Shown: positions 10,301 to 25,666, numbered from the stretch's first letter. The stretch: 64,000 nucleotides of DNA from an uncultured Porphyromonadaceae bacterium (GCA_964547475.1 CAZJNQ010000004.1:16784-80783); one strand, 5' to 3'. Notes: generated by a model not told the origin, from the letters alone. Numbers and translations: made by a program.

Positions 10301-11847
10301 TGGGATTTGACTCAACCCTGCTCCGGATGTCGCAGTCTTCTTCAGACCAGTTGGAAATCAAGTCCAAAAGAACTTTTTATGACGTAGACAACAAACTCAT
10401 CCGGGCAACGGAGACCGAATTCATAGACGTTGCCGACATGAGGATCTTTCCGGCCGACAGGAATCTCATGATTCGGGAAAAGGCCGACCTCGACACCCTC
10501 CGGCAGGCTGTACTGGTCAGCCGGGATACCGGACTGATCCACCGGATAAGCGGCGCCTCCGTCAAAATAATTGACCGTTCCAACTATTTTGCACGGGGCA
10601 ATTATCAGTACCGGGACATAGCCGGCCGTGAGTTCTCCATCCATTTTTCCGACATTCATCCGGATGCCGCCGGTCATTCCCAAGGGAAGGGAACCATCGG
10701 CATGAATTCAGGATTCGCCCTGAGTCCCGCCTTCAGGTATTATGGAGAAGTGGAATGGCACAACGATAAACCGCTCCTTCTGTTTGACGGCCAGATGCAA
10801 ATCGTTCATTCCTGCAACGAGAACATCCGCCAGTGGATCCGGTTCACGGACCGGATCAATCCCGACTCCGTATCCATACCCATTGATTCCGTCACCGTCA
10901 ATGATCAGAACGAAAGGCTGTTTAAAGGATTCTACCTGTCAAACCAGCCGGTTGAGCTTTATTCCACCTTTATCGGGCCTCACCTGAGATACAGCGACCA
11001 GCCCCTGATATCTGCCTGGGGCAGGCTCTGGTACGACGAATCCCGCTCGAGGTACCTGCTTGCTTCAGGCCAAAAGAAATCGGATCCTGCGGCGGATGCT
11101 CCTCTGCTCTCTTTCGACGCAAACCGGTGCATCTGTGAAGCTGACGGGAAAACCGGCCTGGGAGTCGATCTGGGAAAGGTCAAACTGACCGGTGCGGGCC
11201 GACTTATCCACGACTTACGGCAGGATAGCGTCAGCGGGACCATGACCCTGACCCTTGATTTCTTCATGGATGACAAAATCCTGGATTACATGGCCCGGTC
11301 CATCAACAATGCTTCGAGAACTGAACCTGTCAACTATGCTGATCCCTTATTCCGCGAATCATTCAGGTATTTGCTGGGGAAAACAAAAGCCGATGAATTG
11401 CTCGGGCAATTAAGCATGATGGGACGCTGGAGGAAGGTTCCCGAAGAGCTCATGCATACCCTTGTGATGACTGATGTCCACCTGGGGTGGAATCCCGAGA
11501 CAGGTTCATACCAGTCAGCAGGCAAGATAGGCATTGCCAACATAAGGGATAAAGGTGTGAACAAAAAGGTCGATGGATATCTTGAAATCGTCCACAAGAG
11601 AAGCGGTGACACATTCAGCCTCTACCTGGAGCTTGAAAGGCAGGGTTACTTCTTCTTCACTTATTCCCGCGGGATCCTGCAGTGCATATCAGGACCCAAA
11701 TACGAGAAATTCAACACTCTTTTGCGCTCAACAAAGGAAGCCAAAAGAATTCAGGAAACACAACCATGGGAACCGGGATTCCAATATTATCCCGGACAGT
11801 ACAGGCAAGTACAGGAATTCCTGATGAGGTTTGGGGTGGAACGTTAA
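7396..11847 (+). CDS. very large secreted protein of unknown family (1483 aa)
   Basis: Uninterrupted 4.45-kb ORF. ATG 7396 gives a classical signal peptide (MKQLLRIGLMTIVVLYAGTQLAKGQ). There is no lipobox Cys and no T9SS C-terminal domain, and I recognise no motif or internal repeat. Confidence 0.8.
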   Translation: MKQLLRIGLMTIVVLYAGTQLAKGQESVRFHAEAGLFVAELRDLFGGRHADETARLIQDLESANKAGYLEENHWIDLARKVNRLDYLKARPFPDFYLMIETFVTVAGIQSRSDYINWSMNVDKLLETEDKNLGRVNTFLTFTRDFIQQGLLMESPSCTWISYPKTGAFQMDTSFSVRQENVTLVCRSGSDSTVIFSASGTFYPETGSWIGDSGLVTWERLDIPADQVQVKLRTYRIDIRRSVYTIDSVNLIDKRYFTNPLTGVLENKVQPGISRDQAGYPRFTSYELKNRIKDIYPGMDYEGGFSLQGKKVLGTGEPSQKSVLTIFYNERPLIRLASTYFVFQPEQARGINTEASIYLEADSIYHPGLLFQYNKPRNELAFIRDGQGLSPSRFFDYYHQFDLDVEMIRWNPGDSLLFMSSMVGSQENRAAFESSDFFSIGRYNEILIEDIKHPVAAVKQCADFLYSRSFTLRDLAYFMDRPEHLVEKMLLRLSFLGMVRYNVENQQIEVLQRAYDFLKKKAGSQDYDIIQFESLQEPPNPNAILNLNTNILRVFSVKQIELSKARNVILYPDRQIVDILKNREILFTGNIRGGLAYFSGYDFRFRYDDYSILMDSVSVIRFQVYEDPVKKGDPPKLADVTSLVENTSGTLFIDRPDNKSGFYAGAFPEYPMLVTDSNAYVYYDQKEILNGIYPRETFNFSIHPFTLRGLNLTTFADSLNLPGRFVTADIFPPIELILRHQKDHSLGFQTLRTPEEGYPIYKGKGRFFNLMAMSKSGLRGSGTLQYLNSTLESDDFLFLPDQVTTLANTFAVNQDTVENGNPEAVGQEMAVSWMPEKDRMVASGKDNPLSMYGKVEFDGELSLEPGSLTGKGTMRFERYSVTSDQFHFYQESYDASNAEFRIFDDSTGSGTEADSDRVGFIARQVDVAVSTREKKAGFRTVSPSSSIDFPHNQFTGQSGSFIWDMNLNLMGFDSTLLRMSQSSSDQLEIKSKRTFYDVDNKLIRATETEFIDVADMRIFPADRNLMIREKADLDTLRQAVLVSRDTGLIHRISGASVKIIDRSNYFARGNYQYRDIAGREFSIHFSDIHPDAAGHSQGKGTIGMNSGFALSPAFRYYGEVEWHNDKPLLLFDGQMQIVHSCNENIRQWIRFTDRINPDSVSIPIDSVTVNDQNERLFKGFYLSNQPVELYSTFIGPHLRYSDQPLISAWGRLWYDESRSRYLLASGQKKSDPAADAPLLSFDANRCICEADGKTGLGVDLGKVKLTGAGRLIHDLRQDSVSGTMTLTLDFFMDDKILDYMARSINNASRTEPVNYADPLFRESFRYLLGKTKADELLGQLSMMGRWRKVPEELMHTLVMTDVHLGWNPETGSYQSAGKIGIANIRDKGVNKKVDGYLEIVHKRSGDTFSLYLELERQGYFFFTYSRGILQCISGPKYEKFNTLLRSTKEAKRIQETQPWEPGFQYYPGQYRQVQEFLMRFGVER

Positions 11848-12955: not shown

Positions 12956-13660
12956 ATGCATCTTTTCTATGCTCCCGGCCTGACCGATCAGCCTGAGTTC
13001 ACCCTGTCGCCAGAAGAGTCTCATCATGCCGTCAGGGTGTTGAGACTGGTTCAGGGTGATCCGGTTGTACTGGTGAACGGTTGCGGAGGCTGGTACTCAG
13101 CGGTGATTGCATATCCCGATCCCAGGAATTGCCCGGTCGAAATAACGGAAAGCAAGCAGGGAATCGGCAAGCCCGGTTACGAACTTCATGTGGCCATGGC
13201 TCCCACCCGGCAGATAGACCGGTTTGAGTGGTTCATCGAAAAAGCGACTGAAATCGGCATTACCTCCATCACTCCGATTATCTGCAGCCGGTCAGAGCGC
13301 AAGGAGGTGAAAACCGACCGGTTGATCAAAGTAGCCATCGCCGCCATGAAACAGTCGCTGACAGCCTATCATCCCGCCATTCACAGCCTGTCGTCATTCA
13401 AGCAGTTCGTGTCCCGGCCTGCCGCGGGATCCAAATGGATCGCCCATTGTAATCCCGGCAACAAGAACTGGCTGGATGAATCACTTCAAAAAGACCAGCC
13501 CTGGACGATCCTTATCGGGCCCGAGGGGGATTTCACTCCTGCAGAAGTGGAACTTGCAGGTGAGGCGGGATATCTTCCTTTAACCCTCGGAACCTCCCGC
13601 CTGAGGACTGAAACAGCGGGACTGGTTGCCGTTCAGACCGTAAATTGGCTCTACCGTTAA
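12956..13660 (+). CDS. rsmE: 16S rRNA (uracil1498-N3)-methyltransferase RsmE
   Basis: N-terminal PUA-like region (HHAVRVLRL) and C-terminal SPOUT motifs (ILIGPEGDFTPAEV, LGTSRLRTETA). 234 aa. Confidence 0.9.
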   Translation: MHLFYAPGLTDQPEFTLSPEESHHAVRVLRLVQGDPVVLVNGCGGWYSAVIAYPDPRNCPVEITESKQGIGKPGYELHVAMAPTRQIDRFEWFIEKATEIGITSITPIICSRSERKEVKTDRLIKVAIAAMKQSLTAYHPAIHSLSSFKQFVSRPAAGSKWIAHCNPGNKNWLDESLQKDQPWTILIGPEGDFTPAEVELAGEAGYLPLTLGTSRLRTETAGLVAVQTVNWLYR

Positions 13661-13734
13661 TCAAATTTTCCTTTCCGATTTAAATTCATTATCTTGTAGC
13701 AGGTTAGCTAATTATCCAATAACCTGTAAAACCT

Positions 13735-14205
13735 ATGTTGGGACGCACAAGAAACAAGCGGCAGCTTGAAATTTTCGAGGTTCCGATAGCCCGTTTTATC
13801 AATCTTAAACATGAATTGGTCATCGGAGCCGATCAGATCGACTGGGAATCTCTTGAAGATTCATTCAAGGATTTCTATTCAGATAAAGGCAGGAGATCCA
13901 TACCGCCCAGGAAAATCATCGGGATGATGCTTTTAAAGGAACGTTTTAATCTCAGTGATGAGAAAGTCCTGAAGATCTGGCCTGAAAACCCTTATTGGCA
14001 ATATTTCTGCGGAGAGATCCATTTTCAGCCAGACAAGCCTTTCTCCCTGAGTGAGTTAACCCGTTTTCGAAGGAGAATAGGCGAACCCGGGCAGGTAATC
14101 ATGAAAAGGATCAATCTGAAACACTTCGGGAACCCGGACGTCAAGACTTATGAAACCCTGAATGACCGCAGGAAGAGAAGCTTCTGGAAGAAAATCATTG
14201 GATAG
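13735..14205 (+). mobile_element. truncated IS5/IS1182-type transposase remnant (InsH N-terminal/DUF772 domain only)
   Basis: The 156-aa ORF matches the transposase N-terminal domain pattern (IDWESL, GRRSIPPRKIIGMMLLKERFNLSDEKV, NPYWQYFCG, LTRFRRRIG). It ends before any DDE catalytic region, and the next gene starts 18 nt later. Confidence 0.7.
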
Positions 14206-14223
14206 GCAGAACAAGCGATCAGG

Positions 14224-15750
14224 ATGTTCAGGAGTGGTTTTTTTATAGGATCCTGTTTATTTTGGGCATTTCTCTCTTTTTGCCCCACTCAACTCAAATC
14301 CCAGACAGCCATGCAAACAAAGAAAGAAGACCGTAAACCGGCGGTCTCAGGATCGTTTTATCCATCAGATCCTGATCAATTGAGAAAAATGGTTGCCGGC
14401 TTTCTTTCACAGGGGAAACCGGACCAGACAAAGGGAACTTTAAGAGCGCTGGTGGTTCCGCACGCCGGATATGTTTTCTCGGGTGGAGTGGCAGCCTCCG
14501 GTTATAACCAGATTGATCCAAATGCCGGATATAAGCGGATTTTTATCCTGGCTTCCTCGCATCGCATGAGCCTGGGTAAAGCATCGGTCTATACCCGCGG
14601 AGATTATCTGACTCCCTTGGGAAGAATCGAGGTTGATCAGGCTGTCTCGGAGCAACTGGCTCTAAACCGGGAATTTTTCACCGATGATCCGGCGGCTCAC
14701 ATCCAGGAACACAGCATCGAGGTACAACTCCCCTTTCTCCAGGTAAGAATGTCCAAGCCTTTCAAACTGGTGCCAATTGTTATCGGTACCCAAACCCCAT
14801 CCGTCTGCGCGGGAATAGCCGCAGCACTGAAGCCGTGGTTCACATCGGAGAATCTGTTTATCATCAGTTCGGATTTCTCTCATTATCCCCGTTATGAAGA
14901 CGCCCGGAAGGTGGATGCATTGACCGCCGGTGCTTTCTGCGCCAATTCGGCTGAACGGTTCCTCGCGGTTCTGCGGGACAATGAAAAACTCAGGATATCC
15001 AACCTTGCAACCAGCATGTGTGCTTGGCCTTCGGGTCTGGTACTGCTTTACCTGACTCAGAACAATCCAAAGCTTGTATTCAGCAAGATCGATTATAAAA
15101 ATTCAGGTGATATTCAACCCTACGGTGACAAATCAGAAGTGGTGGGATATCATGCCATTGCTGTTTCCGAGGGAATTACTACAGCCTTTTTCCTGAGCGG
15201 GAAGGACAAGGAAGATTTACTGGCCATAGCCAGAACGACCCTTGAATCTTACATCCGCAATCACCAGGTACCGGTCCTGAGTCCTGCCGGATACGGAGGA
15301 TCCCTGAAAACGAAGACCGGGGCTTTTGTCACGCTCAAGCTGAAGGGCAATCTCCGGGGATGTATCGGTTCCTTTGAGCCTGATGCGCCATTGTACAAAG
15401 TCGTACAGGAAATGGCCATTGCCTCGTCAACCCAGGACACCCGTTTCCTGCCTGTCGAGGCAAAGGAATTGGATGACATCAATATCGAAATATCCGTGTT
15501 GACACCCTTAAGGAAAATAGATGACGTCCGGGAGATCATCCTGGGTAAACACGGCATTTATTTGAAAAAAGGATACCTCGGCGGCACCTTTCTGCCCCAG
15601 GTTGCCACGGAAACCGGCTGGACACTCGAGGAGTTTCTCGGTCATTGTGCGCAGGACAAGGCCGGGATCGGCTGGACCGGCTGGAAGGATGCAGATATCT
15701 ATATATATGAAGCCATTATCTTTGAGGAGGACATCCCGAAGAAACCATGA
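14224..15750 (+). CDS. fused Memo-like (AmmeMemoRadiSam protein B) / AMMECR1-like (protein A) protein
   Basis: The N-terminal half has Memo motifs (SGSFYPSD, VVPHAGYVFSG, SSDFSHY). The C-terminal half has AMMECR1 motifs (GAFVTLKLKGNLRGCIGS, LPVEAKEL, GTFLPQV). Starting at 14224 adds a hydrophobic leader. An alternative ATG at 14311 would remove it. Confidence 0.85.
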   Translation: MFRSGFFIGSCLFWAFLSFCPTQLKSQTAMQTKKEDRKPAVSGSFYPSDPDQLRKMVAGFLSQGKPDQTKGTLRALVVPHAGYVFSGGVAASGYNQIDPNAGYKRIFILASSHRMSLGKASVYTRGDYLTPLGRIEVDQAVSEQLALNREFFTDDPAAHIQEHSIEVQLPFLQVRMSKPFKLVPIVIGTQTPSVCAGIAAALKPWFTSENLFIISSDFSHYPRYEDARKVDALTAGAFCANSAERFLAVLRDNEKLRISNLATSMCAWPSGLVLLYLTQNNPKLVFSKIDYKNSGDIQPYGDKSEVVGYHAIAVSEGITTAFFLSGKDKEDLLAIARTTLESYIRNHQVPVLSPAGYGGSLKTKTGAFVTLKLKGNLRGCIGSFEPDAPLYKVVQEMAIASSTQDTRFLPVEAKELDDINIEISVLTPLRKIDDVREIILGKHGIYLKKGYLGGTFLPQVATETGWTLEEFLGHCAQDKAGIGWTGWKDADIYIYEAIIFEEDIPKKP

Positions 15751-18101
15751 CCACCCCCTACCTCCTGATCCCGGTCCTTATTATCCTCCTAATCCTGTAT
15801 GGCATCAGTCTCTTGTTCAGCCAACTGGAGGTATACAATCGGCTTACGCACCGGAAAATCTGGAATTACTCCCTCCTGGTCACATTCCTGACAACCGGTA
15901 TTCTTGGCATCCTGATGGCTATCCAGATCAATTACAAAATCGAAGTTCCCTGGACGGAGAAGGTCCTAAAGGTGCATGTCAATTTCGGGATTGCCATGAC
16001 AATCATCGCCTTCTTTCACCTTCTCTGGCACCTCAGGTATTATCTACCGTTTAAGGCTTTTTCCGGGAAAAGCCCGCGGCCAGGAACCAGGATACAGAAA
16101 CAGGTCAACATACCCGGTTTCCTTTTACCGTTCATGGTCGGGTTTACCGCTGTTGCATTTCAAACCCTCGTTATCCGGGAGCTGCTGGGTCTTTTCTCCG
16201 GAAATGAGTTTATCCTCTCCATTATTTTCTTTTTATGGCTGACCCTGACGGGAGCCGGAGCCTTCGCCGGTACCCGCACCAACACTCCTGCTGAGGGCAC
16301 CCGGTTATCAAAAAAAACCATTTACCTGATTTTGGCTCTTGCCTCCATGCCGGTAGCGCTGATTCCGCTCCTTTATTTTCTCAAGAGCCTGTTTTTTTCT
16401 CCCGGCATAGAAGCAGGTCCCGCCGGCCTGTCAGGCTTTCTTTTCCTGATCCTTCTGCCGTTCTGCTTCCTGAATGGATTCTCATTCACTTACTCGGTCA
16501 AGCTCTTACGTCCATCCGGTATGACAGCCGGAGGGGCTTATGCCTGGGAGAGTGTCGGTTCAGCTTCCTCCGGCTTTCTCATGACCCTGGCCATACTCCT
16601 GGGAATCTTCTCAGGTTATCCAGGCAGGTGGGCTGAACGGCTCATTCATCCCAATGAGGAAATCATCCAGACCTATTCGGGGGTATCGGGCCGTCTTACT
16701 GTCACCAGGACAGGTGAACAGGTCAATATTTACGAGAACGGGGTTTTGACCCACTCTTCGGGCAATCCACTGACCAATGAGGAGCTGGTCCATTTCACCC
16801 TGTGCAGCCATCCGGACCCGCGCGACATTCTGGTCATTGGCGGAACCTGTACGGGCATCACTGCGGAGCTGATGAAATATGACTGTCACCGGGTAGATTG
16901 CATTGAACCCGATCCGCAGGTCATCCGGACTGCCAAGAAACTAAATCTTCTCGCAGAAGGGTATCCAAACATCAACTATCTCAGGATAAATCCATTTCAT
17001 CACCTCATTTCCGATACGGCAACCTATGATGTCGTGATTGTGATGTTGGCAGGACCCCAGAACCTGAACCTTAACCGGTATTATGCATCCTCCTTTTTTG
17101 CTTTGGCCAGGAAGCATCTGGGGCATTCAGGAATGGTAACCGTCATGCTTCCCGGTACGGCCAATTATGTCTCCGGCAATGCCCTGGACATGCTGGGGCC
17201 CATTTACTCAGCCGCCAGGAAATCCTTTGGACAAGTTGCCCTGTTGCCGGGGGAAAACAATTACCTGATGGCTTCCGATGAAAAATGGACCATAGACATT
17301 CTTCACACACTGCAAGAGCGAAAGATCCAAACCACCTTTATCCGGCCGGGATACTTTGATGAAAACCTGCTGATTGCCAGGAAATCTGAAATGGAACAGT
17401 TACTGAACCAGGTTTTTACTGCCAATGAAGAGTTCCGGCCCAAAGCTTTTCTGGGAATGATAAACTGGTGGATCGGGCAGTTTCCCCTTCGCTTACTGTG
17501 GATTTTCGGAGCTGCAGCCCTGTTTATCATCCTGCTGACCCTGGTCGGGAGCAAACCGGAAAGTAACGCCATGTTTTTATTGGGAGCAGGAGCTTCCGGT
17601 CTTCAGATCATTCTCCTCTTCCTGGTTCAAATAACCGCCGGCACGCTTTATCTCTTCGCCGGTTGCCTGCCGGCCATTTTCATGACAGGCCTTGCGACGG
17701 GAAGTTGGTGCTTTCTCCGGAAGAGAGTCGGTAAGATCCTGAGCTCTGATACTTTTATCTGGCTTTTGTTTTCCTTTTCCGGTCTGCTTTTGCTTGTAAT
17801 CTCGGAATGGCTGGCCCATCCGTCGGGAATGACCGGGCTCAAGACCGTTTTGATATTCCTGATTTCCTTTATTGCGGCATTCTCAAACGGAGCCGTTTTT
17901 GCCCGGCTGGCATCCCAGCCGGGAGATCATGCAAATCCAGGCAGGATCTATGCTTACGACCTTATGGGTGCCGCGTTGGGTGCCATTGTGTTCCCGCTTG
18001 CCCTGGTACCTCTGTTCGGAATCAAGCTGGCTATAGGGGTTATTTCCGCTACGGGTATTGTATCTTTGGGGTTGACAAAACTCGTGCGTAAACGTTCATG
18101 A
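15747..18101 (+). CDS. polytopic membrane protein with a central spermidine-synthase-like (class I methyltransferase fold) domain
   Basis: 784 aa with multiple TM helices on both sides of a soluble core (ILVIGGTCTGITAELMKY, VDCIEPDPQVI, YDVVIVMLAGPQN). ATGA start/stop overlaps link it to both neighbouring genes. Confidence 0.75.
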   Translation: MTTPYLLIPVLIILLILYGISLLFSQLEVYNRLTHRKIWNYSLLVTFLTTGILGILMAIQINYKIEVPWTEKVLKVHVNFGIAMTIIAFFHLLWHLRYYLPFKAFSGKSPRPGTRIQKQVNIPGFLLPFMVGFTAVAFQTLVIRELLGLFSGNEFILSIIFFLWLTLTGAGAFAGTRTNTPAEGTRLSKKTIYLILALASMPVALIPLLYFLKSLFFSPGIEAGPAGLSGFLFLILLPFCFLNGFSFTYSVKLLRPSGMTAGGAYAWESVGSASSGFLMTLAILLGIFSGYPGRWAERLIHPNEEIIQTYSGVSGRLTVTRTGEQVNIYENGVLTHSSGNPLTNEELVHFTLCSHPDPRDILVIGGTCTGITAELMKYDCHRVDCIEPDPQVIRTAKKLNLLAEGYPNINYLRINPFHHLISDTATYDVVIVMLAGPQNLNLNRYYASSFFALARKHLGHSGMVTVMLPGTANYVSGNALDMLGPIYSAARKSFGQVALLPGENNYLMASDEKWTIDILHTLQERKIQTTFIRPGYFDENLLIARKSEMEQLLNQVFTANEEFRPKAFLGMINWWIGQFPLRLLWIFGAAALFIILLTLVGSKPESNAMFLLGAGASGLQIILLFLVQITAGTLYLFAGCLPAIFMTGLATGSWCFLRKRVGKILSSDTFIWLLFSFSGLLLLVISEWLAHPSGMTGLKTVLIFLISFIAAFSNGAVFARLASQPGDHANPGRIYAYDLMGAALGAIVFPLALVPLFGIKLAIGVISATGIVSLGLTKLVRKRS

Positions 18102-19225
18102 ACAAGCGGGAGTTTCTGAAATGTTTAACAATTACCGGAGCCTCAGCCTGCATCGCATCGACGGGAGCTATCGGCAATGAATTGATATCAGCTATGGATG
18201 ATTTGAACACTGACAACCAGGGAGAAAGGGAAGCCAGCCATTATGTGGTCACTCCCCGCGGCGTTAAATGCCTTATCTGTCCCAATGAGTGCACTTTGAA
18301 GGAAGGGGAGTTAAGTGATTGCCACAACCGGATAGCCCGCGACGGGAAACTCTTCACGATGGCCTATGGAAATCCCTGCGCGGTCCATATTGATCCGGTT
18401 GAAAAAAAGCCCTTGCTGCATTTTTATCCGGCCAGTCTCTCTTTCAGTCTGGCCACGGCAGGATGTAATTTCGCCTGCCTGAATTGCCAGAACTGGGAGA
18501 TCAGCCAGACTTCGCCCACGAAGACCCGGAATTATCAGGCTACTCCCGTTCAGCTCGTCGACCAGGCTATCCGGGAAAACTGCAAGTCAATAGCCTATAC
18601 CTATTCCGAACCGATCACCTTTTTTGAGTACATGCTCGATACAGCGACGTTGGCCAAAAGCAGGGGAATCAAGAATATAATGGTTTCCAACGGTTACATC
18701 AACCCGGAACCCCTGCTGGAATTGTGCAAGGTGATCGACGCAGCCAATATCGACCTGAAGACCTTTGATGAGGAGGTCCATCTGAAACTGACCGCCGGCA
18801 ACCTCAAACCGGTCCTTGAAACATTAAAAACGTTCAGAAAGGAGGGTGTTTGGCTCGAAATCACCAACCTGATCGTACCCAGCTGGACCGATAATTTCGA
18901 TGTCATTGCACGCATGTGTGATTGGTTGGCCCAGGAGGGATTCAATGATTATCCCCTGCACTTCAGCCGTTTCCATCCGCAGCATAAACTGACCCGCCTC
19001 CCGGTCACCCCTTTGCAATCCCTGACCCGGGCCAAGGAAATTGCCCTGAAAGCGGGTCTTCACTACGTCTATGTAGGGAATGTACCGGGCATCGGGGGAG
19101 AGGACACCTATTGCCACAGCTGCAAAGTGCTCCTGGTCAAGAGAAACGGTTTTGAAATAGAGCAGAACCTGATTGTCAACGGGCGCTGTCCGAAATGCCA
19201 GACTCCGGTCCCCGGACGGTGGTAA
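18098..19225 (+). CDS. AmmeMemoRadiSam-type radical SAM enzyme with a Tat-like N-terminal leader
   Basis: CX3CX2C motif CNFACLNC, plus an N-terminal Cys cluster (CLICPNEC, DCHNR) and a C-terminal one (CHSC, CPKC) as in the PflA-like AmmeMemoRadiSam partner. ATG 18098 overlaps the upstream stop as ATGA. Confidence 0.88.
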   Translation: MNKREFLKCLTITGASACIASTGAIGNELISAMDDLNTDNQGEREASHYVVTPRGVKCLICPNECTLKEGELSDCHNRIARDGKLFTMAYGNPCAVHIDPVEKKPLLHFYPASLSFSLATAGCNFACLNCQNWEISQTSPTKTRNYQATPVQLVDQAIRENCKSIAYTYSEPITFFEYMLDTATLAKSRGIKNIMVSNGYINPEPLLELCKVIDAANIDLKTFDEEVHLKLTAGNLKPVLETLKTFRKEGVWLEITNLIVPSWTDNFDVIARMCDWLAQEGFNDYPLHFSRFHPQHKLTRLPVTPLQSLTRAKEIALKAGLHYVYVGNVPGIGGEDTYCHSCKVLLVKRNGFEIEQNLIVNGRCPKCQTPVPGRW

Positions 19226-19273
19226 TCTAAAATTTCTTTATCTTCGGATAGATCTTCAAGTTTAGAAGCGTAC

Positions 19274-22228
19274 ATGCAAGTAAACTGGGTTTTGTTTCAC
19301 CGGTTTAAGATCAAACCGGTCTTTGTTTTCATTTTCTCCCTCTGGGCAGCTGCCTTACCCGGGCAAGTCAAAAACAAAGGAATCCCGCACATTATCAATT
19401 ATCCCAAACAGGTTTATGAGGGGGGTACCCAGAACTGGAGCATCACCCAGGATCAGAAAGGCTTCATGTATTTCGGCAATAATGACGGTCTCCTGGAATT
19501 TGACGGTAAGCGGTGGAGGAGATACTCTCTCTCAGACCGTTTTCTGTACCGGGCTGTGGCGGTTACATCGGACGGGACCATATACATTGGATTGTCAAAT
19601 GACTTCGGTATGATGATACCTGATGAAAGAGGTATCCTGCACTATGTTTCACTTTCTGATCAATTTCCCCGGATTGCCGTAGGATTCAATGAAATCTGGA
19701 AGATTTTTGAAACTCCAGCTGGTATCTATTTTCAATCAAAAAGTAAAATTTTTCTGTATAAGGGTAATCAAATGGATGTCATTTTTCCTGACAGGGAGTT
19801 CAATTTCCTGTTCAAAGCGGATAAAACCCTGTATACCAGTGAACGGCACCTTGGACTTCTTAAAATACAAGGCACGCAAGTATCCAAGGTTCCGGGTGGT
19901 GATGCCTTTATCGGGATGAACATTGAATCCGTGGTTCCCTATGATGACCGGAACCTGATCATCGGCACAGCCAAAAACGGACTTTTCCTTTATGACGGAG
20001 AAAAAGCCGTTCCCTGGGCCAAAGAAGCATCAGCCTTTTTGATGGAGAACTCCATATTTTGCGGCATCGCCCTGCCCAACCGCTACTATGCCTATGGGAC
20101 AATCCGGGACGGTGTGCTGATCATTGATAAGGAAGGCAGACCGATTCAACACCTGAACCAGTCGAAAGGACTGCAAAACAATACTGTGCTGAGCCTTTTC
20201 TCCGATCGCGACAATAATCTATGGCTTGGTCTTGACCGGGGGATTTCCTATGCAGAAATCAACTCTCCCATAACTTTTTACAATTACGGAAAATCCTTGC
20301 CGGGAACAGGGTATGTTTCCATTCTGGCGGACGGCAATCTCTATGCCGGCACCAACCAGGGACTTTTCCTGAAGAAATGGTCTGAGTATGAAAATCCTCT
20401 TAATGAACGGGATTATTTTTCAGTTGTTCCGGGTACCCAAGGCCAGGTTTGGTCACTCAAAATGATTGATAAAAACTTGTTTTGCGGGCATAACCTGGGG
20501 ACGTTCCTGATCCGTGGCACGGAAGCCAAAATGATTTCCGAAGTACCGGGCAGTTGGGATTTTTTAAAACTATCCGCAAATCCAGGTATTGTCCTGGGTG
20601 GAACATACACCGGGGTCAATCTATACACCAAGAGCCCTGAAGGTTGGAAATTCTCAGGACCGATAGCAGGATTCCATGAAAGCACACGACTTTTTGCCGA
20701 GGATGACCTGGGCCGCCTGTGGATTGCACATGGAAGCCTGGGTGTTTTCAGGGTTGAATTCAATGAGGATTATACAACGGTCACCTCGGTTAAGTTATAT
20801 ACCGACCGGGAGGGATTACCCTCGAAATACCGTAACTCGGTTTACAAGATTGGCAGCCAGATCCTGTTTACCACCATCAACGGGATTTATTACTATGACC
20901 AGGCTACCGATTCTTTTATGCCGGACCTCAGGTTTAACGAACTGATCGGGAAGGAACCCGTTAGTTCCCTTTATGAAGACAAACAGGGAAATATCTGGTA
21001 TTTCAAGCCCTCCGAAATGGGAATTATCCGATCGGGCAATCAATCGGGCCGGAGTGTTGAGAAAAGACCCTTTTACCCCCTGAGGAACCAAACAAACCGC
21101 AGTTATGAGCATGTTAATTTCCTTGACGAAAACAACATAATCATCGCTTGCGAAGAAGGTTATGCACATTATGATCCAACCTACGCCCTGAAGCTGGCTG
21201 AAAATGCGCAATGTCATATACGAGCTGTCATCGGCACAGGGAAAGTTTCCACCACCTACCTGGGAGGAAACGAACCGACAATCATAGATGCATCCGGTGA
21301 CAATCAAAAACAAGATCTTCGTATAAGCATACCCTTCTCCTCCAACAACCTCAGGTTTGAGTTCGCTGTCCCTCTTTATGACCATCCCGATGAATTACGG
21401 TTCAAATACTACCTTGAAGGTTACGATGATTACGAGAGTGCATGGACAACTGAAGCATTCAAAGAGTACACCGGACTCAAGGAAGGTTCCTACCTTTTCA
21501 GAGTCAAAGGATTGGGTATTAATAACATAGAAACTTCAGAAGCTTCGGTCAGGTTCCGGGTGCTGCCACCCTGGTTCAGGAGTACGGTAGCCTATGTTTT
21601 TTACATTTTAGTTCTTCTGTCCGCCAGTTTTCTGACCGGCCGAAGGATTCTACATAAATTCCAGCAAGAGAAACTGGCTGTCACTATCCAGCATGAAAAG
21701 AATTTTGAGCAGATCAGGCAACGTTACCTGGCCGAATCGCTAGAATCCGAAAAAAGACTGGTGGTGCTTGAAAAGGATAAACTGGAAACAGAAATGGCAT
21801 TCAAGAACAAGCAATTGTCAGCCAGCATATCCGGTCTGGTCAGGAAGAACGAGTTCCTCATCATGCTTCGAAAAGAGATGATCAGGATTTCCGAGAAGCT
21901 GGTGGACTCCGAAGCCGGGAGAAACCTCAACCGCGTAATCGCGAAGGTGGAAGCCAATATTGAAGCTGAAGCAGATTACCGGCAGTTCGAGGACCACTTT
22001 GATGCCGTCCATGACAATTTTCTGAAAAACCTGAAAAAACAGTTTCCCCAGCTGACACCGACTGATTTGAGGCTCTGTGCTTACCTGCGTTTAAACCTGA
22101 CAACCAAGGAGATCGCACCGCTTCTAAACATATCACCGCGGGGGGTGGAGATCAGCCGTTACCGTTTGCGCAAGAAAATGAACCTTCCACACGATCTTAA
22201 CCTGACGGATTTCATGATCAATTTCTGA
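19274..22228 (+). CDS. membrane one-component sensor-regulator: beta-propeller (Reg_prop) repeats + Y_Y_Y domain + TM helix + coiled coil + LuxR-type HTH
   Basis: Repeated propeller motifs (NDGLLEFDG, NLWLGLDRGISY, GRLWIAHGSLGVF). Y_Y_Y motif LRFKYYLEGYDDYESAW and SYLFRVKG. TM helix VAYVFYILVLLSASFL. C-terminal HTH LTPTDLRLCAYLRLNLTTKEIAPLLNISPRGVEISRYRLRKK. There are no histidine kinase or receiver motifs. Confidence 0.85.
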   Translation: MQVNWVLFHRFKIKPVFVFIFSLWAAALPGQVKNKGIPHIINYPKQVYEGGTQNWSITQDQKGFMYFGNNDGLLEFDGKRWRRYSLSDRFLYRAVAVTSDGTIYIGLSNDFGMMIPDERGILHYVSLSDQFPRIAVGFNEIWKIFETPAGIYFQSKSKIFLYKGNQMDVIFPDREFNFLFKADKTLYTSERHLGLLKIQGTQVSKVPGGDAFIGMNIESVVPYDDRNLIIGTAKNGLFLYDGEKAVPWAKEASAFLMENSIFCGIALPNRYYAYGTIRDGVLIIDKEGRPIQHLNQSKGLQNNTVLSLFSDRDNNLWLGLDRGISYAEINSPITFYNYGKSLPGTGYVSILADGNLYAGTNQGLFLKKWSEYENPLNERDYFSVVPGTQGQVWSLKMIDKNLFCGHNLGTFLIRGTEAKMISEVPGSWDFLKLSANPGIVLGGTYTGVNLYTKSPEGWKFSGPIAGFHESTRLFAEDDLGRLWIAHGSLGVFRVEFNEDYTTVTSVKLYTDREGLPSKYRNSVYKIGSQILFTTINGIYYYDQATDSFMPDLRFNELIGKEPVSSLYEDKQGNIWYFKPSEMGIIRSGNQSGRSVEKRPFYPLRNQTNRSYEHVNFLDENNIIIACEEGYAHYDPTYALKLAENAQCHIRAVIGTGKVSTTYLGGNEPTIIDASGDNQKQDLRISIPFSSNNLRFEFAVPLYDHPDELRFKYYLEGYDDYESAWTTEAFKEYTGLKEGSYLFRVKGLGINNIETSEASVRFRVLPPWFRSTVAYVFYILVLLSASFLTGRRILHKFQQEKLAVTIQHEKNFEQIRQRYLAESLESEKRLVVLEKDKLETEMAFKNKQLSASISGLVRKNEFLIMLRKEMIRISEKLVDSEAGRNLNRVIAKVEANIEAEADYRQFEDHFDAVHDNFLKNLKKQFPQLTPTDLRLCAYLRLNLTTKEIAPLLNISPRGVEISRYRLRKKMNLPHDLNLTDFMINF

Positions 22229-22270
22229 CAGCCCCGTATTTGCTTCGTTTCCCGAAAAACCTTTTAGTCC

Positions 22271-22310
22271 TGATGTAGCTGTGATGTAGTCAAGATGTAA
22301 CAGTTATGTG
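22271..22310 (+). promoter_or_regulatory. four direct repeats phased at exactly 11 bp (candidate operator upstream of susC)
   Basis: TGATGTAG (22271), TGATGTAG (22282), AGATGTAA (22293) and TTATGTG (22304). The ATGT cores start at 22273, 22284, 22295 and 22306. The array lies in a 333-bp non-coding region between the regulator and susC. Confidence 0.35.
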
Positions 22311-22561
22311 TTTTCACCGTTGTCAGTCCCTGGGATTAACCTTAAACTTACTTGTCCGACTGTGTCCCGGGAGGATAACGGTAGGAACCTGAACCTATTT
22401 GATGATTGGGTTAATTGATTTGGAAGGGTTTTATCTAAATTTCATTAATGACTATGTACCGGACAATACCCTACCCGATTATTCCGGGCCCTTAGTCCAA
22501 CTCTGATTGTCTCCTCCAGGAATTTCGTTCCTGCTAATTAGCCAAAATTTATATCAACCTA

Positions 22562-25500
22562 ATGTTTAATCCTATGAATCTTAAACTTTTCCGTTTTCTA
22601 AAAGTCTTTACTGCGGTGCTCGTCATCTGGCTCGTTGCAGTGTCGGCATTCGCTCAGGGACTTGTAGTTTCGGGAACCGTTACCGATGAAAAAGGTGGCG
22701 GGCTTCCCGGAGTTAACGTAGTAATCAAGGGCACGCAATTGGGCGTTTCAACCGATCAGGCGGGCAAGTACAGCCTGTCGGTTCCCAATGCTCAAGCAGT
22801 CTTGTCCTTCAGTTACGTGGGATACCAGGCGCAGGATATCCCCGTTGAAGGGCGTACGGTCATCAACGTATCACTTCAACCACTCGACATCACTATCGAT
22901 GAGGCTGTGGTTGTGGGCTACGGCGTTCAAAAAAAGAGCCTGATCAGTGGTGCCATAGCGAAAGTTACGGCTGAGGAAATGGTCAGGGGCAACAACCTCA
23001 GGATCAACCAGGCATTGCAGGGTAAGACTTCCGGTGTGGTCATCATGAACAATTCCGGTCAGCCCGGGGATTTCGTCTCGGTCAGGATCCGCGGGATTGG
23101 TACTAACGGCGATGCGGAGCCTTTATACATCGTTGACGGGCTTCCGACCAATGGTTACGGTATTGATTATCTGAATCCTTCCGATATTGAGTCGGTCGAA
23201 GTCCTGAAAGATGCTGCCTCGGCAGCGATCTATGGAGCCAGGGCGGCTAACGGGGTTATCCTGATCACCACCAAAAAAGGCAACAGGGGAACCACGCAGG
23301 TCACCTATTCAAGCTACCTCGGATTTCAAAATCCCTGGAGAAAACTGGATGTCCTTGACAAAGACGACTATTTCATGCTGCAGAATGAAGCAGCCGCCAA
23401 TGCAGGTCAGCCCTGGAAATTCAGCCAGGCCATGATCGATACTTTTCCTTACAGCACCGACTGGCAGGATGAAATGTTCAATTACAATGCCCCTAAACTT
23501 AACCACGAGGTAGTGATTTCCGGTGGCAGCGGAAGGGGCAGTTTCCTCAGCTCGTTCAATTACCTCAAGCAGGACGGGATTGTTGCCAAAGGCAAATCCA
23601 ATTTCGAGCGGTTTACCTACAGGCTGAACCTGGACTGGGATTTGGATTTCCTCAAGATCGGAACCAATATCAACCTGGCAAACATGAACAGTCAGGGGAT
23701 TTCGACGAATGACCACTTTGCTTCCACCAGCCTGGTTCAAGCCTTGAACACTCCGCCAATAGTACCGGTTAAATTTCCCAACGGTGAATGGGCATCTCCC
23801 GAGGATTTCGGCATAGGGATGCAGGAAATCACCAACCCGGTTGCCATGCTTTCCTATACGAACGGACATACCAACACCTATAAAGCTGTGGGCAATACCT
23901 ACGCCTCGTTTGACTTCGGAAAGCTCTTCGGTGCGTTGGAGGGTCTGACCTTCCGCACCTCCCTGGGTGGGGAGTATGCTTTGGTAATCAACCGGAATTA
24001 TAATCCGGAATACGATCTGGATGCCACTCATAAAACCCTTATCAACAGCGTTTCGAGGAGCGAGGATAATTACATGAACTGGAACTGGGAGAACATCCTG
24101 ACCTATGATAAAACCTTCGGTGAACATCATATCACCGCACTGGCCGGTCATGCTGCCCAGAGAAACCAGTATAGCAATGTCGGAGGGTCAAAAAATGACG
24201 TGATCTTCGACGATTACGAGCATGCCTTCCTGGATAATGCGATGGATGTGACCTCCGCAACCATTTATGGAGGTTACAGTGATCACACCATGCTTTCCTA
24301 CTTTGGAAGGATCAACTACGACCTGATGAACAAGTACATGGTGACGGCCATAATGAGAACTGACGGTTCCTCGAGGTTTGGTTCAGCCAATAAGTTCGGT
24401 ACCTTCCCGTCCCTGTCGGCAGGGTGGATCTTTTCGCGTGAATCTTTCATGGAAAAATTCGGCAACTGGTTGAGTTTGGGAAAACTCCGTGCCAGCTGGG
24501 GACAGAATGGGAACGAATCGATCGGGGACTTCCGTTACACTTCGGTGATGGGAACCGGTTCCATATATTATTATGGGATCGGACAGATCCAGTACAACGG
24601 GATGGTCCCAACCCGGATTGCCAATCCGAGCCTGAAATGGGAAACCTCGGAACAGTTGGACTTCGGTCTTGACCTGGGTTTCCTGAACAACAAGTTATCC
24701 CTGACGGTAGACTATTATATCAAGACCACCAAAGACTGGCTGATCGAAGCCCCGGCTCCCATGCTGGTTGGCAACGTACCCCCGGTGATCAATGGAGGTT
24801 CGGTGAGGAACAGCGGACTTGATATGGAATTCGGTTACCGCGAGCATTTTAACGATCTCTACGTGGATGTTAAACTGATTGGTAACACCAATAAGAATAT
24901 TGTCCTGGATATTCAGAACGAGGAGCAGCGCCTGCAAGGCGGCGGCGGCGGATTCGGGCAAGCCGACATCGTCCGCGCCGAAGTGGGCTCGCCTCTGGGA
25001 GTGTTTTACGGTATTCAGACTGACGGCATCTTCCAGAATGAGGAGGAAGTGCAGGCTCACACAAATGCAGAAGGAAAGCTGATTCAACCCAACGCTCAGC
25101 CAGGTGACTTCCGTTTTGTCGACCAGAACGGCGACGGAACCATCGACAGCAACGACCGGGTCATGATAGGCAATCCTTATCCTGATTTTACCGGGGGTTT
25201 GAACTTGTCCCTGGAATTCAAAGGAATTGATTTCAACATGTTTTGGTACACTGCGTTAGGCCATCAGGTCTGGGATGCAACCCGGCGTTATGACATGAAC
25301 TATACCAATTACCGGGGTGAAGCCCTAAACAGATGGACCGGTGAAGGCAGTACGGACGAGTATCCTCGCCTGACTTACAACGACCTGAACCAAAACTTTA
25401 AAACCCCGAGTGATTTCTGGGTTAAAGATGCTGATTACCTGAGGCTCAGGAACCTGTCAATCGGTTATACGCTACCCGGCAAGATAACCCGGATGATCCG

Positions 25501-25666
25501 GATCAGCAAAGTCAGGTTCTATATCCTGGCCGAGAATCTGCTGACATTCACCAAATATGACGGCTATGAACCTGAGATCGGCGGTGGCGTGTTTAATTAC
25601 GGTGTTGACCATGGCATCTATCCGCAGGCCCGCACTATTTATGGTGGAATCAATGTAACCTTCTGA
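22562..25666 (+). CDS. susC: SusC/RagA-family TonB-dependent outer-membrane transporter
   Basis: Signal peptide, carboxypeptidase-regulatory-like domain (VSGTVTDEKGGGLPGVNVVIKGT), plug region (VVVGYG, IESVEVLKDAASAAIYGARAANGVILITTKKG), a long barrel and a terminal aromatic residue (INVTF). Confidence 0.93.
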   Translation: MFNPMNLKLFRFLKVFTAVLVIWLVAVSAFAQGLVVSGTVTDEKGGGLPGVNVVIKGTQLGVSTDQAGKYSLSVPNAQAVLSFSYVGYQAQDIPVEGRTVINVSLQPLDITIDEAVVVGYGVQKKSLISGAIAKVTAEEMVRGNNLRINQALQGKTSGVVIMNNSGQPGDFVSVRIRGIGTNGDAEPLYIVDGLPTNGYGIDYLNPSDIESVEVLKDAASAAIYGARAANGVILITTKKGNRGTTQVTYSSYLGFQNPWRKLDVLDKDDYFMLQNEAAANAGQPWKFSQAMIDTFPYSTDWQDEMFNYNAPKLNHEVVISGGSGRGSFLSSFNYLKQDGIVAKGKSNFERFTYRLNLDWDLDFLKIGTNINLANMNSQGISTNDHFASTSLVQALNTPPIVPVKFPNGEWASPEDFGIGMQEITNPVAMLSYTNGHTNTYKAVGNTYASFDFGKLFGALEGLTFRTSLGGEYALVINRNYNPEYDLDATHKTLINSVSRSEDNYMNWNWENILTYDKTFGEHHITALAGHAAQRNQYSNVGGSKNDVIFDDYEHAFLDNAMDVTSATIYGGYSDHTMLSYFGRINYDLMNKYMVTAIMRTDGSSRFGSANKFGTFPSLSAGWIFSRESFMEKFGNWLSLGKLRASWGQNGNESIGDFRYTSVMGTGSIYYYGIGQIQYNGMVPTRIANPSLKWETSEQLDFGLDLGFLNNKLSLTVDYYIKTTKDWLIEAPAPMLVGNVPPVINGGSVRNSGLDMEFGYREHFNDLYVDVKLIGNTNKNIVLDIQNEEQRLQGGGGGFGQADIVRAEVGSPLGVFYGIQTDGIFQNEEEVQAHTNAEGKLIQPNAQPGDFRFVDQNGDGTIDSNDRVMIGNPYPDFTGGLNLSLEFKGIDFNMFWYTALGHQVWDATRRYDMNYTNYRGEALNRWTGEGSTDEYPRLTYNDLNQNFKTPSDFWVKDADYLRLRNLSIGYTLPGKITRMIRISKVRFYILAENLLTFTKYDGYEPEIGGGVFNYGVDHGIYPQARTIYGGINVTF

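Follow-up and report, generated by a model that had tools for sequence, protein, structure and literature searches.

Within the window (the whole 64,000-nucleotide stretch of DNA from an uncultured Porphyromonadaceae bacterium analysed here) the plus strand carries an AmmeMemoRadiSam system at 14224-19225, and the membrane protein gene that sits inside its operon is a deeply co-conserved fourth component of the trio. Taken together, the N-terminal leaders of the enzymes, an outward-facing SpeE-like domain and a DUF4405-like module predict a system that is extracytoplasmic as a whole, and it is tentatively read as a periplasm-facing AmmeMemoRadiSam variant whose membrane partner would link it to the cytoplasm as a source of AdoMet, of electrons or of both. 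In this widespread variant the soluble parts have export-type leaders and are accompanied by a dedicated membrane protein. If export does take place, the radical SAM reaction goes on in a compartment that is not known to contain either the enzyme's cofactor or its electron source.

The operon and its enzymes

The first gene, amrBA (14224-15750, 508 aa), had initially been annotated as a Memo-like half fused to an AMMECR1-like half, and this is borne out by Pfam (Memo, E = 1.3e-54, residues 39-311; AMMECR1, E = 6.2e-50, residues 334-500) and by the NCBIfam models TIGR04336 AmmeMemoSam_B (231.6 bits, cut-off 26, residues 37-314) and TIGR04335 AmmeMemoSam_A (158.5 bits, cut-off 99, residues 332-500). 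By our own HMM coordinates the Memo (AmrB) domain lies at 14332-15165 and the AMMECR1 (AmrA) domain at 15214-15735, and the putative metal and active-site motifs PHAG, SH, EHS, SSDFSH, MC and LRGCIG are kept in the fusion when it is compared with MEMO1 and MM0484. The gene for the 784-aa membrane protein follows at 15747-18101 and amrS (375 aa) closes the operon at 18098-19225, each junction being an ATGA stop/start overlap (15747-15750, sequence ...AAACCATGACCACC, and 18098-18101, sequence ...GTTCATGAACAAG). All of these elements, and the motifs quoted for them (VVPHAGYVFSG, SSDFSHY, GAFVTLKLKGNLRGCIGS and CNFACLNC), are present in the DNA and its translations as the initial annotation had them, and with the Memo, AMMECR1 and radical SAM families all scoring above curated cut-offs the family assignments are far above chance level. 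The window proteins thus match all three models of the canonical amrA/amrB/amrS system.

The components are encoded together in one overlapping operon in the window and the same arrangement is kept in relatives. The idea that fusion and translational coupling represent a remodelling of the system holds as far as both are real, but neither is special, as Memo-AMMECR1 fusions and tight amrB-amrS operons are also found in the canonical Ideonella and Segatella loci, which do not have the membrane gene. AMMECR1-dioxygenase fusions were already reported in 2007 (PMC2034487).

AmrS matches TIGR04337 with 362.2 bits (cut-off 220) from residue 55 onwards, and also matches Pfam Radical_SAM. Its intact CxxxCxxC cluster motif (C123-N-F-A-C127-L-N-C130, 18464-18487) has cysteines that are invariant in the amrS alignment, as is an N-terminal CxxCxxxC...C auxiliary motif. 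PflA is the closest solved relative (3c8f, E = 3.7e-10). The likeness to PflA and the glycyl-radical activases is in the CxxxCxxC core; AmrS differs in adding the N-terminal cysteine motif and a C-terminal extension, all NCBIfam activase equivalogs score far under cut-off for it, and no glycyl-radical enzyme partner for it is present.

The membrane protein and its SpeE-like domain

The middle protein had been described as polytopic with a spermidine-synthase-like core, and this agrees with its match to Pfam Spermine_synth (PF01564; confined to residues 344-465, 53.4 bits with a cut-off of 22.9) and with an AF2 model of the full protein (pLDDT 91.7, pTM 0.91) in which an alpha/beta domain takes the central position and 15 helices are TM. 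The membrane core is split, its N-terminal half (TM4-TM8, 16122-16598; helices 126-149, 155-177, 185-216, 225-257 and 261-284) preceding the SpeE-like domain and its C-terminal half (TM9-TM15, 17490-18095; separate AF2 model pLDDT 86.4) following it. A profile of the C-terminal half finds two matching stretches in most family members, so the core halves are homologous, and Q...G...(E/Y) motifs are common to both. Foldseek searches of the PDB with the C-terminal half gave only MFS transporters among the best 50 matches, all weak (E 0.07-0.3, TMq 0.34-0.57) and none with E <= 0.001, and Pfam gave no MFS match. In contrast to classical MFS proteins with 6+6 helices and a cytoplasmic loop, the arrangement is 5 (7 in relatives) + 7 helices, and the halves are joined by a domain of about 250 residues that is predicted to be external.

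This SpeE-like domain (residues 305-553, 16659-17405) is predicted to be extracytoplasmic by the positive-inside rule: the predicted inner loops have a K+R density of 0.227 and the outer ones a density of 0.073, and the outward orientation is predicted for 86/86 homologues. In a fusion of the L010 type an FMN_bind domain is placed on the SpeE-like domain's side of the membrane, and FMN_bind domains are extracytosolic by established biology (PMC11334425).

The domain's only Foldseek matches are spermidine and thermospermine synthases, at TM-scores to target of 0.63-0.72 and with 13-20% identity, and the full SpeE fold is kept, including its N-terminal beta-domain (about 270-290 residues). The likeness to the SpeE aminopropyltransferases (PF01564, including the membrane-anchored PRK03612) thus extends to fold, Pfam domain and a ribose-binding Glu, whereas the NCBIfam SpeE equivalogs are all far under cut-off (best PRK03612, 76.6 versus 472; TIGR00417, 44.3 versus 249.6). 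At the positions of human spermidine synthase (hSpdS) D104, D173, D176 and E124 the window protein has C368, M433, G436 and E387. The equivalent of D104, the GGGDG Asp to which the aminopropyl amine binds and which keeps AdoMet out, is gone in all 86 homologues, being mostly L/I/V. D173 and D176 are the catalytic and amine-binding Asp residues of DSSDP, and the equivalent of D173 is gone in 78 and Asp in 8; the ribose-hydroxyl-binding Glu (E124) is Glu in 81/86. The adenine-binding Asp (D155) is present in 46/86 but in only 3/31 of the window's own clade, and an invariant pair new to the domain, N443-R444, appears in the homologue alignment. With the dcAdoMet-selecting and catalytic aspartates of the aminopropyltransferases lost, a polyamine product of the system, which had been proposed, is unlikely. 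A further difference from SpeE is the predicted outward orientation, on a side of the membrane not expected to contain dcAdoMet. As residues for AdoMet binding are retained only in part, and few members of the window's clade have the adenine-binding Asp, the domain might be a pseudoenzyme of the non-binding kind. The name 'fused MFS/spermidine synthase' is given by NCBI to distant relatives of the membrane protein (P0088, P0099), and a search of a literature library found no published function for that fused class.

At its N-terminus the protein has a three-TM DUF4405-like module (15747-16046; helices 7-26, 32-63 and 70-94) with a putative haem-b site made up of His35, His77, His91 and His95, conserved in 71/73, 73/74, 73/73 and 65/73 sequences. 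The match to Pfam DUF4405 (PF14358) is full-length and below the gathering score (21.1-21.4 bits versus 26.7), with matches at E <= 0.01 in 8/21 members. Proteins with DUF4405 have been shown to be haem-b cytochromes (PMC11334425), and by analogy the window's module would bind haem b as well. It differs from DUF4405 cytochromes in having three helices rather than six, and a bis-His site would need dimerisation. The module is found in 33/80 loci, many family members being without any redox module, and a distant clade has FMN_bind and two Fer4_5 (NapH-like Fe-S) domains in its place. Both the four-His module and the distant clade's domains are reminiscent of flavinylation-associated extracytosolic electron transfer systems (DUF4405, MsrQ/PepSY-like cytochromes; NosR/NapH-like proteins); no apbE was seen near the locus.

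Leaders and co-conservation

The fusion starts with a hydrophobic leader, MFRSGFFIGSCLFWAFLSFCPTQLKSQ (14224-14304, read from the translation), a putative Sec-type signal; several Lys/Arg residues follow it, which is atypical for a Sec signal. AmrS starts with a putative Tat-type leader, MNKREFLKCLTITGASACIASTGAIG (18098-18175), within a 54-residue N-terminal extension that falls outside the TIGR04337 model. Its motif NKREFLK (N-K-R-E-F-L-K) has K-R where a classic twin-arginine motif has R-R, and is followed by a mildly hydrophobic h-region, CLTITGASACIASTGAIG, ahead of the Fe-S enzyme. The TAT_signal HMM TIGR01409 does not match this leader, and an archaeal AmrS leader (L070) scores 15.8 against its cut-off of 16.7. 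AmrS leaders of this kind resemble those of Tat-exported Fe-S and cofactor proteins (DmsA/DmsB, the Rieske protein, hydrogenase small subunits) in their N-terminal [ST]-[RK]-R-x-F-[LI]-K pattern, their mildly hydrophobic G/A/S/T-rich h-region and their cofactor-containing passenger, and in the window's genome a DmsA homologue, a classic Tat substrate, starts MAKHNRREFIRNSAIAGG with the motif NRREFIR.

Across loci with the membrane gene every readable AmrS N-terminus (69/69; 47 KR, 14 RR, 8 RK) has a Tat-type motif and, behind it, an h-region. Spirochaetota, Syntrophales, Planctomycetes and archaea have RR at the homologous position, Bacteroidota have KR and Desulfobacteraceae RK; the canonical S/T-R-R-x-F-L-K stands there in six other lineages, archaea among them. 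Three loci with a leaderless AmrS have a separate 61-79 aa ORF with EMTRRxF, which resembles hitch-hiker export. The Memo/AMMECR1 partners have a hydrophobic or lipobox leader in 55/56 readable loci (stand-alone AMMECR1 in 4/4), and in several of them a lipobox can be read (VTSC, ITSC, LISC and VSGC are examples). Motif inspection and the positive-inside rule are what point to export. The AmrS and fusion leaders, the outward SpeE-like domain and the DUF4405-like module had all been overlooked in the initial annotation. We know of no radical SAM enzyme established so far as a Tat substrate, and a full-text literature search found nothing on one as a periplasmic twin-arginine substrate.

The survey of the membrane gene covered 80 genomes of GTDB species representatives, which belong to at least 8 phyla and include archaea. 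Neither of the two outcomes that the initial annotation had named as refuting it came about: the family searches did assign Memo, AMMECR1 and radical SAM, and the membrane gene is not confined to the trio of this one genome. Its family comprises 105 clusters, and a TM-specific profile extends to 544 clusters at E <= 1e-30. The tightest partner of the membrane gene is amrS, which in 61/70 loci with enough flank is the next gene downstream and has the same orientation; among 50 GTDB loci with flanks of at least 3.5 kb, amrS is present in 47, AMMECR1 in 45, Memo in 42 and all three in 41. The order Memo-AMMECR1, membrane protein, radical SAM returns with membrane-protein homologues of 49, 42, 31, 28 and 25% identity amid unrelated flanks (the trio itself with homologues of 49-23%), and four loci (L065, L071, L077, L087) hold only the membrane gene and amrS.

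Leader and membrane gene also go together when sampling is centred on canonical amrS: both are present in 11 cases, only the leader in 1, only the membrane gene in 2 and neither in 24 (Fisher p = 7e-7). Exported-type AmrS is phylogenetically coherent, with a largest pure clade of 80/92 and 4 parsimony changes. Canonical systems, with Ideonella, Trichlorobacter amrS and a set of 24 leaderless metagenomic loci as examples, lack both the AmrS leader and the membrane partner, and the window differs from them in its 54-residue AmrS extension, the signal-like leader of the fusion and the 784-aa protein encoded between. In these canonical cytoplasmic systems a SpeE-like or methyltransferase partner is found in 0/26 leaderless loci, barring 2 of the L010 type, and therefore the SpeE-like domain appears tied to location and not to core chemistry.

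How the parts may work together

In the periplasm-facing model that we tentatively prefer, AmrS would receive its Fe-S clusters while still in the cytoplasm and then be exported folded via Tat by its K-R or R-R leader, and the Memo-AMMECR1 fusion, a probable lipoprotein in many relatives, would be exported by Sec. The 784-aa protein would be an obligate fourth subunit making this relocation workable, with an MFS-like 12-helix core of two homologous halves and an outward SpeE-like Rossmann domain between them that has kept the ribose-binding Glu and lost the residues for aminopropyl transfer and AdoMet-carboxylate discrimination. The core, with the SpeE-like domain as adenosyl binder, might then bring AdoMet to the outer face and hand it to AmrS. 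The redox module, in this clade probably the added DUF4405-like three-helix module with its four conserved histidines, might give the exported enzymes a connection to an electron source or sink of the cell; it is putatively of haem-b type here and is FMN_bind plus NapH-like Fe-S in the distant clade. To our knowledge AdoMet outside the cytoplasm has not been reported to date, which counts against an extracytoplasmic reading, and b-haem potentials are too high for reducing a radical SAM cluster, which counts against electron supply by haem b. Also counted against the model are the window's K-R leader with no TIGR01409 match, the Lys/Arg residues behind its fusion leader, the partial retention of AdoMet-binding residues, the many family members that lack a redox module, the external position of the large domain, the plain hydrophobic leaders without twin-Arg on the membrane-partnered AmrS of L131 and L135, the weak MFS similarity, the sub-threshold DUF4405 match and the Segatella pattern, a leader on amrBA and none on amrS, which the model leaves unexplained.

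A membrane or envelope substrate, as first suggested for the system, is possible as one among several readings. Close to that suggestion, the membrane protein might bind or flip a substrate of the membrane or envelope, for example a lipid or a molecule of polyprenyl or quinone-like type, and present it at the outer face to the exported enzymes, with the SpeE-like domain acting as a substrate-binding lid and not as an AdoMet handler. This fits the same co-conservation and export data, and it would make use of the MFS-like core, a fold within which lipid flippases exist, and of the conserved polar residues inside the TM helices (Q139, R144, E154, E268, Q628, D738); the many Memo-AMMECR1 partners that are probably lipoproteins would be at the membrane surface, and Burroughs et al. 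in 2019 reportedly tied some Memo contexts to aliphatic isoprenoid modification. It is nevertheless rather unlikely, since it gives no account of the source of AdoMet and reductant for a radical SAM enzyme that is exported, since the membrane gene is tied most tightly to amrS (adjacent in 61/70, present in 47/50, and its only companion in several loci) and not to Memo/AMMECR1, and since a ribose-binding Glu kept in 81/86 suits an adenosyl ligand more than a lipid.

A third reading makes the SpeE-like domain an active AdoMet-dependent enzyme, a methyl- or 3-amino-3-carboxypropyl-transferase with a new active site (E345/E346, D428, N443/R444, Y446) that would carry out a further step on the product of the trio. 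The complete fold with its beta-domain, the weak profile matches to class I methyltransferases (METTL13, UPF0020; E about 1e-3), and the hydrophobic replacement of the dcAdoMet-selecting Asp in 86/86, which with the new invariant Arg would suit the AdoMet carboxylate, speak for such activity. Set against these are the loss of the adenine-binding Asp in the window's clade, canonical loci that do without any such partner and a continuing need for AdoMet outside the cell, making this improbable.

Were the hydrophobic leaders only tethers or docking peptides, catalysis would be cytoplasmic, the membrane protein would be a scaffold and the problem of AdoMet supply would vanish; the K-R leader of the window's AmrS with no TAT_signal match, the K/R-rich stretch after the fusion leader and the non-Tat leaders of L131 and L135 are all in keeping with this. 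Such a cytoplasmic-face assembly is highly improbable in view of the canonical twin-arginine motifs that six other lineages, archaea included, have at the corresponding place, the clear lipoboxes on many partners, the small Tat-signal ORFs beside leaderless AmrS, the positive-inside prediction for all 86 homologues and the extracytosolic FMN_bind fused on the SpeE-like side. Chance insertion of an unrelated membrane spermidine synthase gene, for which nothing speaks beyond the single window, is ruled out for practical purposes by the conservation of the association, which spans at least 8 phyla and a variety of flanks and gene orders, by the ATGA coupling on either side of the gene and by the absence of spermidine synthase catalytic residues.

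Operon assignment and co-conservation of the membrane gene

The trio in the window is a bona fide AmmeMemoRadiSam member. On the forward strand amrBA (14224-15750) encodes a 508-aa Memo-AMMECR1 fusion and is followed by the gene of a 784-aa membrane protein (15747-18101) and by amrS (18098-19225), encoding a 375-aa radical SAM enzyme, with ATGA overlaps at both junctions, as the initial annotation had it in describing the three genes as coupled. In Pfam the fusion matches Memo (E = 1.3e-54) and AMMECR1 (E = 6.2e-50), in NCBIfam TIGR04336 (231.6 bits, cut-off 26) and TIGR04335 (158.5 bits, cut-off 99), and AmrS reaches 362 bits against TIGR04337, the AmmeMemoRadiSam radical SAM enzyme model (cut-off 220). 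The HMM searches suggested with that annotation thus assign all three families, and its reading of a Memo-AMMECR1 fusion beside a radical SAM gene stands. Signature residues of both Memo and AMMECR1 are kept in the fusion on alignment to human MEMO1 and archaeal MM0484. Gene fusion and a tight operon are ordinary in the canonical system too, that is the trio without the membrane gene (PMC2034487 and the loci compared here).

Homologues of the membrane protein were sampled along the identity scale (105 clusters), and at 49, 42, 31, 28 and 25% identity the gene has a Memo-AMMECR1 fusion on one side and a radical SAM gene on the other, with further neighbours that are unrelated among these loci. 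At 23% identity, a relative that additionally has FMN_bind and Fer4_5 domains again lies next to such a fusion and a radical SAM gene, with the genes ordered differently. A scan of GTDB species representatives, in which loci were scored with purpose-built domain HMMs, gave at least 559 loci, and the 80 kept come from Bacteroidales, Ignavibacteria, Aminicenantes, Syntrophales, Desulfobacterales, Planctomycetes, Spirochaetota and several archaeal lineages. Among the 50 with at least 3.5 kb on both sides amrS is present in 47, AMMECR1 in 45, Memo in 42 and all three in 41, and so the gene-neighbourhood comparison proposed earlier, here extended beyond Bacteroidota, bears out the claimed membrane fourth component as co-conserved with the trio and not peculiar to one genome. 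Chance insertion of the membrane gene into the operon is ruled out by this co-conservation across loci. Immediately downstream of the membrane gene and on the same strand lies amrS (61/70 loci with enough downstream flank), and immediately upstream AMMECR1 or the fusion (45/68 with enough upstream flank); by adjacency and presence (61/70; 47/50) the membrane gene thus has its closest link with the radical SAM enzyme. A profile of the membrane helices reaches 544 clusters (50% identity) at E <= 1e-30 and 4,286 at E <= 1e-10.

AmrS leaders go together with the membrane gene

The initial annotation saw the operon and its genes and overlooked the putative export signals on AmrS and on the fusion. 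AmrS of the window begins MNKREFLKCLTITGASACIASTGAIG, starting 54 residues ahead of the TIGR04337 match, and the aligned position reads [ST]-R-R-x-F-[LI]-K in Spirochaetota, Syntrophales, Planctomycetes and Woese-, Aenigm- and other archaea, K-R in Bacteroidota and R-K in Desulfobacteraceae. A Tat-type motif and then a mildly hydrophobic stretch are found in 69/69 readable AmrS N-termini (47 KR, 14 RR and 8 RK, with three loci of split radical SAM hits, L060, L085 and L086, entered from their visible RR motifs). As an internal control served the DmsA homologue of the same window, part of a DmsABC-like molybdoenzyme operon (54670-58533, forward strand; DmsA/YnfE-family subunit with TIGR02166 at 882 bits, 4Fe-4S subunit and DmsC anchor), which begins MAKHNRREFIRNSAIAGG, a textbook twin-arginine signal, and so the source organism has classic Tat substrates. 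The AmrS leader is like this signal but has K instead of the first R.

The 120 closest AmrS relatives listed are all at least 57% identical and do not reach canonical systems; these were sampled by plasmid tblastn and by a metagenome scan that started from a canonical amrS (80 loci returned). Ideonella amrB-amrS and Trichlorobacter amrS have no leaders, and the annotated canonical systems examined hold no membrane gene. In metagenome loci with adequate flanks an AmrS leader comes with the membrane gene in 11 cases and without it in 1, and a leaderless AmrS with it in 2 and without it in 24 (Fisher p = 7e-7). The sole locus with a leader and no membrane gene, L160, has at the corresponding position a Tat-signal (SRRSFIKK) DUF362 protein (5617-6615), flanked by a Memo-AMMECR1 fusion that has a leader and an amrS that has a Tat leader; no MFS/SpeE-like gene lies within 7 kb there, and the DUF362 protein could be an alternative partner. 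At another locus, L004, a DUF362 gene is found just downstream of the operon.

The two loci with the membrane gene and no leader are of a type in which a small ORF carries the Tat motif. Three loci with leaderless AmrS have a conserved ORF of 61-79 aa overlapping the amrS 3' end and beginning ...EMTRRxF (L010 4204-4389; L141 7921-8160; L158 2420-2644), with one hydrophobic helix, a C-terminal ...YPGK...WSG motif and no match in Pfam, and the membrane protein in these loci bears FMN_bind and Fer4_5. These ORFs may be separately encoded Tat escort or hitch-hiker subunits. When 149 AmrS cores were placed in a rough NJ tree, one pure clade took in 80 of the 92 exported-type enzymes, and four state changes suffice for the exported-type distribution.

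Hydrophobic leaders are also present on the Memo-AMMECR1 partners in 55/56 readable cases, the remaining case having one by eye; several show clear lipoboxes, and stand-alone AMMECR1 proteins of Desulfobacteraceae loci have leaders in 4/4. A Segatella hominis plasmid (NZ_CP137560.1; L092, 4408-6825) carries a canonical-looking amrB(A)-amrS with a signal-like leader on the fusion (MRKIVLVVLLTMCMMMEA), a 295-aa AmrS without leader and no membrane partner, and L114 resembles it in having a lipobox on Memo and a leaderless AmrS. The Segatella-type leader on amrBA alone is a weak point, unaccounted for by an exported-system model. Two membrane-partnered AmrS (L131 and L135) have strongly hydrophobic Sec-like leaders with no twin-arginine, KR or RK (e.g. 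MKKTILITFLSLGMFLVISF); such non-Tat leaders are odd for an Fe-S enzyme if truly exported, and are a weak point of export. A literature search, with Burroughs et al. 2019 (JBC 294:10211), said to treat extended Memo-AMMECR1-radical SAM contexts, outside its reach, gave no description of AmrS Tat-type leaders or of this membrane partner.

The membrane protein and its possible role

With such leaders AmrS would be exported folded by Tat and the Memo-AMMECR1 protein by Sec, and the three proteins would be jointly active at the membrane's outer surface. Radical SAM catalysis requires AdoMet and a low-potential electron, neither of them known to be available outside the cytoplasm, so that a Tat-exported radical SAM family raises the question of their source, the obvious candidate being the co-conserved membrane protein. 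The role favoured for it is a 'service' one, the supply of AdoMet and/or a connection to a redox partner, because the sole exported-specific component joins a transporter-like core, an adenosyl-binding fold and, in two clades, transmembrane redox modules that differ between these clades.

The AlphaFold2 model of the membrane protein (pLDDT 91.7, pTM 0.91) has three N-terminal helices, five helices, an alpha/beta domain (residues 305-553) and seven C-terminal helices. Foldseek with the full-length model returned SpeE matches only, and no PDB sequence matched the membrane regions in a profile search; when the C-terminal half of the helices was modelled by itself (pLDDT 86.4), its top 50 PDB matches were all MFS transporters, and weak (E 0.07-0.3). 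Since the C-half profile also matches the N-half in most family members, the membrane core is read as a two-repeat MFS-like bundle, which agrees with the NCBI label 'fused MFS/spermidine synthase' of distant relatives. That the membrane protein serves instead as a flippase or presenter of the substrate, a membrane or envelope molecule, is rather doubtful; the service role fits with its gene being linked more closely to amrS than to Memo or AMMECR1, and with canonical loci in which no SpeE-like partner was found.

The central domain has the full spermidine synthase fold (Foldseek TM-score to target 0.63-0.72); its Pfam Spermine_synth match (53 bits) is restricted to residues 344-465, and every NCBIfam SpeE equivalog model stays far under its cut-off. 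In the numbering of human spermidine synthase, D104, which selects dcAdoMet, is Asp in 0/86 homologues (C368 in the window), the catalytic D173 is Asp in 8/86 (M433), and the amine-binding D176 is G436 in the window. Ribose-binding E124 is Glu in 81/86 (E387), and adenine-binding D155 is Asp in 46/86, yet in 3/31 of the window's clade. On this loss of catalytic residues polyamine synthesis by the membrane protein is rejected, and the polyamine-like product at which the SpeE-like core had been taken to hint is unlikely. A SpeE fold without its defining catalytic features makes the name 'spermidine synthase' unfit, and as an enzyme name for this clade it is almost certainly wrong. A new pair, N443-R444, is nearly invariant (86/86 and 85/86); that the domain has become a neo-functional alkyltransferase is improbable. 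For the service role the fold would no longer discriminate against the AdoMet carboxylate.

The K+R density of the loops, taken from the model, is 0.227 for predicted cytoplasmic against 0.073 for external loops, with the same direction in 86/86 homologues, and for this reason the SpeE-like domain is predicted to face outward. FMN_bind of the relative bearing it falls on the same side by hydrophobic-segment count. Beside this bias, a scaffold at the cytoplasmic face is very unlikely. The N-terminal three-helix module gives a full-length, sub-threshold match to DUF4405, has four nearly invariant histidines and is present in 33/80 loci only; DUF4405 proteins are demonstrated haem-b cytochromes tied to extracytosolic electron transfer, and FMN_bind is an extracytosolic domain (PMC11334425). 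A Bacteroidota relative, L006, has a 168-aa lipoprotein-like ORF (5498-6004) ahead of a membrane protein without the DUF4405-like module, and a HEPN/nucleotidyltransferase toxin-antitoxin pair (8170-8866) inserted between the membrane gene and amrS.

The service role has its weak points: in the clade of the window the AdoMet-binding residues are kept only in part, similarity to MFS and to DUF4405 is weak, and many members are without a redox module. Potentials of b-haems seem too high for reduction of a radical SAM cluster. The complete picture, of a first extracytoplasmic radical SAM family across bacteria and archaea, with a dedicated membrane protein that exports AdoMet via its MFS-like core, passes it on via a spermidine-synthase domain put to new use and, in some clades, also carries electrons across the membrane, is possible and is put forward tentatively. 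Export or presentation of AdoMet would add a new transport activity and show the SpeE fold in a new role, and a function would follow for the large class, hundreds to thousands of clusters at 50% identity, that is labelled 'fused MFS/spermidine synthase' or 'spermidine synthase'.

Conservation of Memo and AMMECR1 extends from archaea to humans, and both are linked to human disease; we know of no reaction for either, and the main clue to their function from gene context is the bacterial trio with the radical SAM enzyme. An exported variant would assign the system to a defined compartment and add a component to it, and so offers a concrete, testable handle; it points to a periplasmic, membrane or envelope substrate and argues, at least for itself, against a nucleic acid, which is hard to square with the earlier proposal of RNA base modification (PMC2034487). 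If true, the chemistry of Memo, AMMECR1 and the radical SAM enzyme would, at least in the exported variant, target a small molecule or envelope component and not RNA.

Neighbouring features of the window

An Rfam scan of 13400-19500 found no riboswitch or other known RNA, and a promoter scan gave 7 promoter-like sites against 5.8 expected, with models that do not cover Bacteroidota promoters. A terminator-like hairpin with T-run (19299-19320, forward strand) lies 74 nt past the amrS stop, inside the opening codons of the long ORF that follows, at its annotated start (19274), and the true start of this regulator may be a later Met. The regulator, a hybrid one (Reg_prop, Y_Y_Y, LuxR-type HTH), belongs to a polysaccharide-utilisation locus immediately downstream of the operon (19274-36854, forward strand) that also holds SusC/SusD, a PKD protein, a GH5 with CBM6/CBM35, a GH3 and two GH16, three of the enzymes with T9SS C-terminal sorting domains; its target is probably beta-glucan. 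The locus is not linked to the AmmeMemoRadiSam system, because in L001 (GCA_942493265.1), the relative at the 49% level, nuo genes come after the operon instead.

On the other side, 19 nt upstream of the operon, a 156-aa ORF (13735-14205, forward strand) has the N-terminal DUF772/IS5-type transposase domain only (NCBIfam transpos_IS5_1, positions 2-111 of 419), with no DDE part. Its syntenic orthologue in L001 is 74% identical, against 61% for the RsmE neighbour; the ORF looks retained or domesticated, and it could be a regulator. Further upstream, a 1492-aa ORF (7369-11847, forward strand) has no Pfam match at E <= 0.001, and its counterpart of 1483 aa is conserved upstream in L001.
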